64,000 nucleotides of DNA, from the sequence record PQ471516.1; one strand, 5' to 3'. This document shows, one piece after another, positions 16,978-18,611 of this stretch. Made by a program: the position numbers and the translations under genes. This DNA is from Escherichia phage Turkey5. The notes below the pieces were generated by a model that was given only the letters and a program-made list of their open reading frames with translations, had not been told where the DNA came from and searched no databases. Position 1 is the stretch's first letter; each line of letters begins with the position of its first letter.

Positions 16978-17730
16978 ATGTCTACACAATCCTTTTTAGA
17001 AAAAGCAGGGGAAAAACGTTTACTGATAATCAGCGGTGCTGGGTTATCGGTTGAAAGTGGGATGGAGCCATTTCGTTTTGATGATGGCTTATGGGATAAC
17101 TTTCAAATCAATGACGTGTGTAATATTGCACGTCTTAGTTCCAAATATCATATAGTACATGCATTCTATAATACTCTAAGAGTAAAATTAGGTTCGTGTG
17201 AACCAAATGCAATGCACTATTACATCAAATCATTAGAGGATCAGTACAAAGATAATTTCTTACACATGACCTCCAATATGGATGATTTGTACACTCGAAT
17301 CGGTGGAACCGAGTTGAAGCTTCATGGTAATCTACGAGAAGTTATTAAAAACTACTCAATCAATAGTGATGACTATGAAGTAATTGACTGTGGTTATGAA
17401 CCGTTCATTCCAGAGACTGATGTGTTCTCTAAACCAAATGTTGTTATGATTGGTGAATATCATCGTTATGTGGATGGGAACCGTCTTCCTATCTACGAAG
17501 AACGAAATGAAGTGTTGCGTAGTCTTACTGAAAATGATACAGTAATTGTTATTGGGAGCAGTGATACAGTACTGGTATGGTCCAGACTAGCTGGGGCGTT
17601 ACCTTGTTATAGTGTTACTGTTAACGTCAGAAAGAATGACAATGACTTCCTATTCAATGAACGTATCATTAAGCCAGCAACTAAAGCAATTCCAGTACTG
17701 GAGCCAATCATTAAGGAAAGAATGAAATGA
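16978..17730 (+). CDS. Sir2-family (sirtuin-like) protein
   Basis: NAD-binding motif ISGAGLSVESGMEPFRFDDGLW, LHGNL catalytic His region, GSSDTV; no CxxC zinc ribbon; ATG at 16978 preferred over TTG at 16963. Confidence 0.6.
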   Translation: MSTQSFLEKAGEKRLLIISGAGLSVESGMEPFRFDDGLWDNFQINDVCNIARLSSKYHIVHAFYNTLRVKLGSCEPNAMHYYIKSLEDQYKDNFLHMTSNMDDLYTRIGGTELKLHGNLREVIKNYSINSDDYEVIDCGYEPFIPETDVFSKPNVVMIGEYHRYVDGNRLPIYEERNEVLRSLTENDTVIVIGSSDTVLVWSRLAGALPCYSVTVNVRKNDNDFLFNERIIKPATKAIPVLEPIIKERMK

Positions 17731-18278
17731 GTTTGAGAGAAGTACCACTCGGAGAATTTGGCAAACAAGCAAACTTTGTATTCTGTTACTTCTTTGCACG
17801 AAATTGTAATCCATATGAGAATTACGAGTTGAATGATATTCCAGTAGTTAATCTGGTACTCCTTCAACTCCGTTGGGATGGGTTGATGGGTGGATGTGGA
17901 GGAACAGTTGAAGATTCTGATACTTCACTTGAAGCTGCGTTGAAGCGTGAAATCCAAGAAGAAATGGATTATAATATTTCCATTGAACAGTTGAAACCTC
18001 TAAAGACGTTTGAATTGTTCCCTGGTGCTAACACTCATAGCTTCAGTTATGAAGTCACATATGATGAGTTGAAAGCGATTCGTGACGGGTACAGTACTGC
18101 TAAACATGCCAGTGCTGAAGTAGCGGGTGTAAATTTATGTCACATTTCTCGATATTCTAAGGGAAAAAATCGAGAAGCAGGATATAATAATCTCATGACA
18201 CAAAACTTCATTGGAACAGCTAAGGAAGAATTGCAGTACTTAGTTGAAAATGAAAACTTACTTATCAGTTACTTATAA
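17727..18278 (+). CDS. Nudix hydrolase
   Basis: Nudix box GGCGGTVEDSDTSLEAALKREIQEEMD (G-x5-E-x7-REuxEE). Confidence 0.55.
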   Translation: MSLREVPLGEFGKQANFVFCYFFARNCNPYENYELNDIPVVNLVLLQLRWDGLMGGCGGTVEDSDTSLEAALKREIQEEMDYNISIEQLKPLKTFELFPGANTHSFSYEVTYDELKAIRDGYSTAKHASAEVAGVNLCHISRYSKGKNREAGYNNLMTQNFIGTAKEELQYLVENENLLISYL

Positions 18279-18290
18279 GGGTAGAACAAA

Positions 18291-18611
18291 ATGTCATATG
18301 AAATGTTCCTCGATGATATTCGTAACCCAGGATACTATTATCCAGGTCGTTCGATGGTTGTATGTCGTGATTTTAAAAGTGCATGTAAACAAGTTGAAAA
18401 ATTTGGTATTCCATCATTTATTTCATTCGATCACGATTTGGGCGACATGAATTATGATGAAAAAACTGGGTATTCCTTCGCTAAATGGATTATTGATTAT
18501 ATGTTTGAGCACGAAATCAAAACACCTTTTGCATTTCATGTTCACAGTAGTAATCCAGTTGGTAAAGTGAATATCGAACATTACCTTAACAATGCATTCG
18601 AAAATTTATGA
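18291..18611 (+). CDS. hypothetical protein (FDHDLG motif)
   Basis: 106 aa ORF immediately after Nudix gene; conserved-looking FISFDHDLG and FHVHSSNPVG. Confidence 0.45.
   Translation: MSYEMFLDDIRNPGYYYPGRSMVVCRDFKSACKQVEKFGIPSFISFDHDLGDMNYDEKTGYSFAKWIIDYMFEHEIKTPFAFHVHSSNPVGKVNIEHYLNNAFENL

Follow-up and report, generated by a model that had tools for sequence, protein, structure and literature searches.

What would a large phage do with a sirtuin whose gene is directly coupled to that of a Nudix hydrolase? This question is posed by a locus of Escherichia phage Turkey5 (PQ471516.1), a jumbo phage of which we analyzed a contiguous stretch of 64,000 nt (hereafter, the window). An earlier note on this DNA, all coordinates named in which were confirmed here, interpreted the sirtuin, the Nudix protein and a distant macrodomain protein as a chain that handles NAD and ADP-ribose. 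Our analysis upholds the coupling of the sirtuin and the Nudix protein but changes their partners and, tentatively, the chemistry.

The sirtuin gene opens a block of five genes that encode, in this order, the sirtuin (Sir2), the Nudix hydrolase, a cREC protein, a small membrane protein and a PIN-PhoH protein (Table 1). The Sir2, Nudix, cREC and PIN genes are adjacent and lie on one strand, between positions 16978 and 20389. The ATG of the sirtuin gene is preceded, 8 nt upstream, by an AAAGG ribosome-binding site, and homologues of 250 aa share this start position. The sequence ATGA at 17727-17730 is common to the stop of the sirtuin gene and the start of the Nudix gene, a 4-nt overlap, and another ATGA, at 18608-18611, is common to the cREC and membrane protein genes. 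The co-directional gene run 16141-20389 that includes the block is preceded by a promoter candidate, which is a pattern match only, the count of such sites across the region being not above chance.

Table 1. Coordinates (window numbering) and assignment of the features discussed in the text
Feature	Position	Strand	Basis
Sigma-70-like promoter candidate	16081..16109	+	TTGACA-17-TACAAT, 11/12 consensus positions (consensus scan)
Sirtuin, Zn-less, CobB-like, 250 aa, predicted catalytically competent	16978..17730	+	Pfam SIR2, PHROG 2162, AF2/Foldseek
NUDT16/X29-like Nudix hydrolase	17727..18278	+	Pfam Nudt16-like and NUDIX; ATGA overlap with sirtuin
cREC (cyclic-phosphate-processing receiver) domain protein, 106 aa	18291..18611	+	Pfam cREC_REC
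Small membrane protein, N-terminally hydrophobic, conserved block member	18608..18898	+	PHROG 14661, 1.6e-27
PIN-PhoH (PhoH2-like) protein, predicted RNA nuclease/helicase, final block gene	18950..20389	+	Pfam PIN_4 and PhoH
Macrodomain protein, outside the sirtuin block	56065..56541	+	PDB macrodomain and DarG matches

The sirtuin matches the Pfam SIR2 profile (PF02146) over positions 1-178 of 180 (71.3 bits against a cut-off of 24; E = 1.3e-19), this being the sole match in a Pfam scan at E <= 0.1, as well as PHROG 2162 (4.6e-74), and its best sequence match in the PDB is E. coli CobB (1.7e-20). The AF2 model (pLDDT 95.5, pTM 0.92), when compared to the PDB using Foldseek, retrieved CobB at the top (E = 8e-17, TM 0.77/0.86), followed by SIRT5, Sir2Af and Sir2Tm. 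The motifs GAGLSVESG...FR...GLW, TSNMDD and LHG are readily identifiable, and the NAD-binding and catalytic residues (G20-A21-G22, S27, F32-R33, N100, D102, H116, G193-S194-S195 and N216), aligned to those of CobB, are invariant across the clade. Thus, the Sir2 fold, the catalytic histidine and the NAD pocket, the absence of which would have refuted the earlier note, are confirmed in the Pfam match, the alignment and the model, and the conserved residues allow one to predict that the enzyme is catalytically competent.

With CobB and SIRT5, the phage protein shares the Rossmann and small-domain fold (TM 0.77-0.86 to CobB), the GAGxS, FR, N-x-D, HG, (F/I)GE and GSS motifs, and the tyrosine of the Y-x-x-R motif. 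It differs from them by an 8-residue insert after the GE motif, by an overall identity of only ~28-31% and by the state of several otherwise characteristic sites. In the Y-x-x-R region, Y64 is kept but the equivalent of CobB R95 is L67; the next residue, R68, is invariant, and other phage sirtuin clades retain RR where this protein has L67-R68. The proline of the VxP motif is replaced by valine and is present in only ~40% of the family. The ligands of the Cys4 zinc ribbon (CxxC...CxxC) are missing, with a single cysteine left between the HG and GE motifs, and a deletion has removed the second zinc knuckle from every phage clade in the alignment; in the AF2 model, the small domain nonetheless keeps its predicted β-strands. 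Of the 128 family representatives, 74 have the zinc ligands, as does a homologue with 29% identity (P0019). The Zn-less state, noted for phage sirtuins already in 2016 (PMC5107563), characterizes a large clade of these proteins. If the zinc site had been lost in concert with the VxP proline or the arginine of Y-x-x-R, this would be a sign of a new acceptor site; we looked for such a link and found none, the frequencies being similar in Zn+ and Zn- sequences. Among the NCBIfam models, only those of deacylases match the sirtuin, and all scores are far below the equivalog cut-offs (86.7 bits vs 318 for the best model; 83 bits vs 320 for prot_deacyl_CobB). All phage sirtuins examined are acidic, with a pI of 4.6-5.8 (5.3 for this one), similar to CobB (5.4) and unlike KptA (9.4).

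The missing zinc cysteines had prompted a comparison with the NAD-consuming Sir2 domains of defence systems; the observation stands, whereas the comparison does not. The phage protein does share with the defence Sir2 NADases (ThsA, DSR1/2, Sir2-HerA, SPARSA) a Sir2-superfamily domain without the Cys4 zinc site. Unlike these host proteins, however, it is phage-encoded and stand-alone, without sensor or partner domains, no PADLOC defence model matches it at E <= 0.01, and none of its top 50 fold matches is a defence Sir2 structure. With deacylases as its structural neighbours and no PADLOC match, the assignment as a defence-type Sir2 NADase was rejected.

The Nudix protein was previously considered an ADP-ribose pyrophosphatase, which is not what the profile comparisons indicate. 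It matches the Pfam Nudt16-like family (PF22327; 70.9 bits against a cut-off of 27; 1.6e-19) and, less strongly, Pfam NUDIX (1.8e-6), and aligns with human NUDT16 over residues 36-179 (144 residues; 6.9e-12). Judging by these matches, it belongs to the NUDT16/X29 decapping type. The Nudix box, as read from the sequence, is intact (R74-E75-I-Q-E78-E79), so that the phage protein resembles human NUDT16 and Xenopus X29 both at the family level and in its Nudix-box glutamates; it differs from them in that its gene shares an operon with that of a sirtuin and, in some phages, is fused to cREC. Homologues were detected in 86 phage records. The next protein, which had been recognized as conserved by its FDHDLG motif, is indeed the product of a real conserved gene; its identity as cREC (PF20274; Pfam cREC_REC, 6.4e-23, above threshold) had been missed, as had the PIN-PhoH gene. 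It displays a conserved acidic pocket and the receiver fold, and no solved structures related to it by sequence were found. Its cyclic-phosphate phosphoesterase activity is a prediction made in two papers (PMC7824862, PMC9503650). The PIN-PhoH protein matches Pfam PIN_4 (7.6e-21) and PhoH (1.5e-44), as well as the NCBIfam model for the RNA 5'-3' helicase PhoH2 (7.2e-46, under the equivalog cut-off). Together, cREC and PIN-PhoH are the defining genes of a neighbourhood described in section 3.7.3 of PMC9503650.

The macrodomain protein is genuine but does not belong to the module in which it had been included. Although it scores below the cut-off of the Pfam Macro profile (16.4 bits vs 22), it matches BT1257 (6.5e-15), SCO6735 (2e-10) and yeast Poa1p (8e-7) in the PDB, and the DarG macrodomain model (3e-10), which identifies it, at the sequence level, as a true macrodomain. 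The protein resembles nucleic-acid de-ADP-ribosylases; SCO6735, a characterised relative, strips ADP-ribose from DNA thymidine and from RNA phosphate ends (PMC9411070, PMC11833690). The gene is located ~1.3 kb (four ORFs) downstream of the CCA-adding enzyme gene (53618-54730), with a second Nudix gene (54838-55239) among those in between. The family is represented in 1786 phage records, compared to 974 for the sirtuin (T5 relatives included), and these comprise T4-like phages without this sirtuin; given this distribution, the distance of 38 kb and the unrelated neighbours, we rejected the macrodomain as a member of the module.

To characterize the genomic context of the block in other phages, we relied on annotated phage records, a related-locus search of viral contigs having yielded only 3 loci. 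The five genes are kept together in five RaK2-like jumbo relatives (121Q, RaK2, CBB, Hallingskeid and vB_Ec-M-J). The small membrane protein gene is found at the equivalent position in 121Q, RaK2, CBB and Hallingskeid, the PIN-PhoH gene follows it in all RaK2-like relatives checked, and, within the jumbo group, the Nudix gene adjoins Sir2 wherever annotation or an ORF search revealed the neighbouring gene. In phage CBB, Nudix and cREC are fused. Gene coupling, conservation and fusion are thus directly observed, and the pairing of Sir2 and Nudix proposed in the earlier note holds in every RaK2-like jumbo phage examined.

Beyond the shared block, the neighbourhoods vary. In CBB and Hallingskeid, a 2H phosphoesterase gene is located upstream of Sir2, immediately or one small ORF away; this gene belongs to the Acb1 anti-CBASS family (PF23474, 1e-15), and the block itself lies 2-5 kb after genes for NadV and NMNAT-Nudix. 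The rV5-like phages carry genes for an RNA ligase, cREC, a P-loop kinase and Sir2 adjoining a tRNA cluster, and in T5-like phages, Sir2 is accompanied by the HAD_SAK_2 RNA-repair phosphatase. In an unrelated metagenomic phage, cREC is positioned between an NAD-synthesis block and genes for a CCA-adding enzyme and an NTase-2H protein. Searches of the window with the proteins of relatives (phmmer) detected no 2H/Acb1, NadV, NatV or RNA ligase genes, and no homologues of the CBB or Hallingskeid 2H gene anywhere in it; neither does the 64-kb window contain tRNA genes. It encodes Pnkp (9-953) along with the CCA-adding enzyme, and in the near-identical phage JNE01, a T4 Rnl1-type ligase is encoded just upstream of the window-equivalent region. 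Homologues of KptA are present in 98 phage records, mainly from Erwinia, Dickeya and ~300-kb Klebsiella phages. None of the Escherichia, Salmonella, Vibrio and Campylobacter groups, which account for 731 of the 974 Sir2 records, appears among the named KptA-phage organisms listed (three single-record names fall outside the listing). The distributions of KptA and Sir2 in phages, compared from per-organism summaries and not genome by genome, are therefore largely complementary.

Both the neighbourhood and the mechanistic hypothesis discussed below have been known since 2022, and dozens of phage genomes have been deposited with these genes annotated. In section 3.7.3 of their paper, Iyer et al. 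2022 (PMC9503650) interpret the neighbourhood as a predicted NAD-dependent RNA-repair system in which the sirtuin is KptA-like. As in neighbourhood type 1 of that section, the sirtuin described here is linked to Nudix, cREC and a PIN protein, in the same group of phages (RaK2/GAP32/CBB/BF/121Q-like), and Nudix-cREC fusions occur in some members both in the paper and in our comparison. The published neighbourhood includes a 2H phosphoesterase, whereas the window has none and the 2H protein of the relatives is of the Acb1 family; the conserved small membrane protein seen here goes without mention in the relevant passages of that paper.

The KptA/Tpt1 and sirtuin reactions both use NAD+ and proceed through attack at C1'', release of nicotinamide and a 1'',2''-cyclic species formed via the ribose 2''-OH. 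In view of this parallel, which is drawn here, KptA/Tpt1 is the proposed functional analogue of the phage sirtuin; the ART and sirtuin folds are unrelated, the pI values differ as noted above, and any relation between the two would be a functional analogy only. Against this background, the reading that we favor, as plausible although still short of probable, is that the sirtuin-Nudix-cREC-membrane-PIN-PhoH block is a conserved early-type operon of RaK2-like jumbo phages in which NAD+ is used on an RNA-linked substrate and the ADP-ribose by-product is cleared. An acceptor oxygen would attack C1'' of NAD+ and nicotinamide would leave, as in normal sirtuin chemistry, and the ribose 2''-OH, activated by His116, would in turn attack the acceptor. 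In place of an acyl-lysine, the acceptor would be an RNA 2'-phosphate derived from the opened 2',3'-cyclic phosphate end left by a host anticodon nuclease or a toxin RNase; the products, as with KptA/Tpt1, would be repaired RNA with a 2'-OH and ADP-ribose 1''-2'' cyclic phosphate. The cREC protein could open cyclic phosphates on the RNA end or the ADP-ribose product, the NUDT16-like Nudix protein would cut the pyrophosphate to yield AMP and ribose phosphate, and the RNA would be healed and sealed by Pnkp and the T4 Rnl1-type ligase. In this scheme, which follows section 3.7.3 of Iyer et al. 2022, the acceptor, products and step order are inferred. A chain through O-acyl-ADP-ribose, as in the earlier note, is one possibility, whereas the gene contexts favor ADP-ribose 1''-2'' cyclic phosphate, as suggested in that section (PMC9503650).

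We favor RNA repair because the Sir2 fold is intact, as are all residues for catalysis and NAD binding; because the block is conserved in five relatives, with two ATGA overlaps and the Nudix-cREC fusion in CBB; and because the genome encodes matching healing and sealing enzymes, Pnkp and Rnl1, as well as a CCA-adding enzyme. The same reading is supported by the links of Sir2 to RNA ligase, cREC and the HAD RNA-repair phosphatase in other clades, by the 2H phosphoesterase upstream of Sir2 in CBB and Hallingskeid, by the position of the metagenomic-phage cREC between NAD-synthesis and CCA-adding/NTase-2H genes, by the absence, by and large, of KptA from Sir2-bearing phage groups, and by the independent arrival at the same prediction in PMC9503650. 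Several observations count against it. Literature searches yielded no experimental work on phage sirtuins and no biochemistry for any member of the clade; the window lacks a 2H gene; and the acidic pI is unexpected for an RNA-binding enzyme. To our knowledge, PIN nucleases leave no cyclic phosphate ends. Furthermore, T4-type Pnkp already removes 2',3'-cyclic phosphates, so that it is not evident why a 2'-phosphotransferase would be needed.

The resemblance of the sirtuin to lysine deacylases, with CobB and SIRT5 as top matches and the Tyr of Y-x-x-R and (F/I)GE retained, also counts against a role in RNA repair and leads to an alternative that we consider rather unlikely, namely, that the sirtuin is an NAD-dependent protein lysine deacylase or protein mono-ADP-ribosyltransferase that retunes host or phage proteins, with Nudix and possibly cREC disposing of O-acyl-ADP-ribose or ADP-ribose. 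This is, in essence, the chain of the earlier note minus the macrodomain. Human NUDT16 cleaves protein-attached ADP-ribose, which would fit such a disposal role; the phage enzyme is acidic like CobB, matches NCBIfam models of deacylases only, has Sir2Af and Sir2Tm among its close structural neighbours, and keeps the catalytic His, Asn, Asp and FR along with the tyrosine of the class III acidic-acyl pocket. A deacylase-type role was argued for KVP40-like phages by Skliros et al. 2016 (PMC5107563). Nevertheless, the scores fall far short of the equivalog cut-offs for CobB, the ligands of the zinc ribbon, which gives the peptide cleft its shape, have been lost, and neither the Arg of Y-x-x-R nor the VxP proline, itself a minority state in the family, is present. 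Moreover, the host already encodes CobB, and the coupling to cREC and PIN-PhoH and the RNA ligase and HAD_SAK_2 links of other clades are left unexplained.

The Acb1-family 2H gene and the nearby NadV/NatV genes of the relatives imply that the region could be an island of counter-defence genes and not a cassette for repair. The block would then act against ADP-ribose-derived or cyclic-nucleotide immune molecules, or against ADP-ribose that host toxins attach to phage nucleic acids, with Nudix and cREC degrading the signal or adduct while the sirtuin supplies or remodels an ADP-ribosyl intermediate, which we regard as improbable. NadV and NMNAT-Nudix, which precede the block in CBB and Hallingskeid, make up a pair for NAD salvage, and pairs of this kind are known to counteract the depletion of NAD; the existence of Nudix-cREC fusions also speaks for this reading. 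However, the window keeps the block without Acb1-like, NadV or NatV genes, adjacency within phage early regions is weak evidence of a common function, the RNA-ligase-linked contexts of the rV5-like phages point elsewhere, and we know of no immune signal whose destruction needs a sirtuin. Degradation of ADP-ribose-derived signals by cREC and Nudix has been proposed in a study of jumbo phages (PMC7824862, section 3.4.8). Finally, the sirtuin might be a plain NAD+ glycohydrolase, like the defence Sir2 effectors, that drains or controls host NAD while Nudix completes the breakdown of ADP-ribose. The missing zinc ligands, a feature of many defence Sir2 domains, and the original annotation of the KVP40 homologue with a role in NAD hydrolysis (PMC5107563) are compatible with this scenario, but the PADLOC and fold comparisons described above, the proximity of the relatives' gene to NAD salvage genes, which is the opposite of NAD depletion, and the harm that NAD loss would cause to the phage itself make it highly improbable.

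Compared to the published account, the present analysis shows that the analogy with defence Sir2 proteins and the link to the macrodomain do not hold, identifies the 2H gene next to the block in the relatives as a member of the Acb1 family, and finds the sirtuins to be uniformly acidic, unlike KptA, which is a reason for caution with regard to RNA repair. In its most specific form, the RNA-repair reading, of which the sirtuin reaction on RNA phosphates is a prediction published in section 3.7.3 of PMC9503650, would attribute to the Zn-less clade an activity new to sirtuins, either NAD-dependent elimination of 2'-phosphates from RNA or the capping of phosphorylated RNA ends with ADP-ribosyl groups, and to cREC that of a new, metal-independent cyclic phosphodiesterase based on a receiver domain, with the NUDT16-like enzyme clearing the product; we consider this possible but doubtful. 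If true, nucleic-acid repair would be added to the activities of sirtuins, in convergence with KptA/Tpt1, and the receiver-domain fold would acquire a role in catalysis, as a phosphoesterase; both would be notable for enzymology as well as for the understanding of how large phages survive host RNA-cleaving defences.

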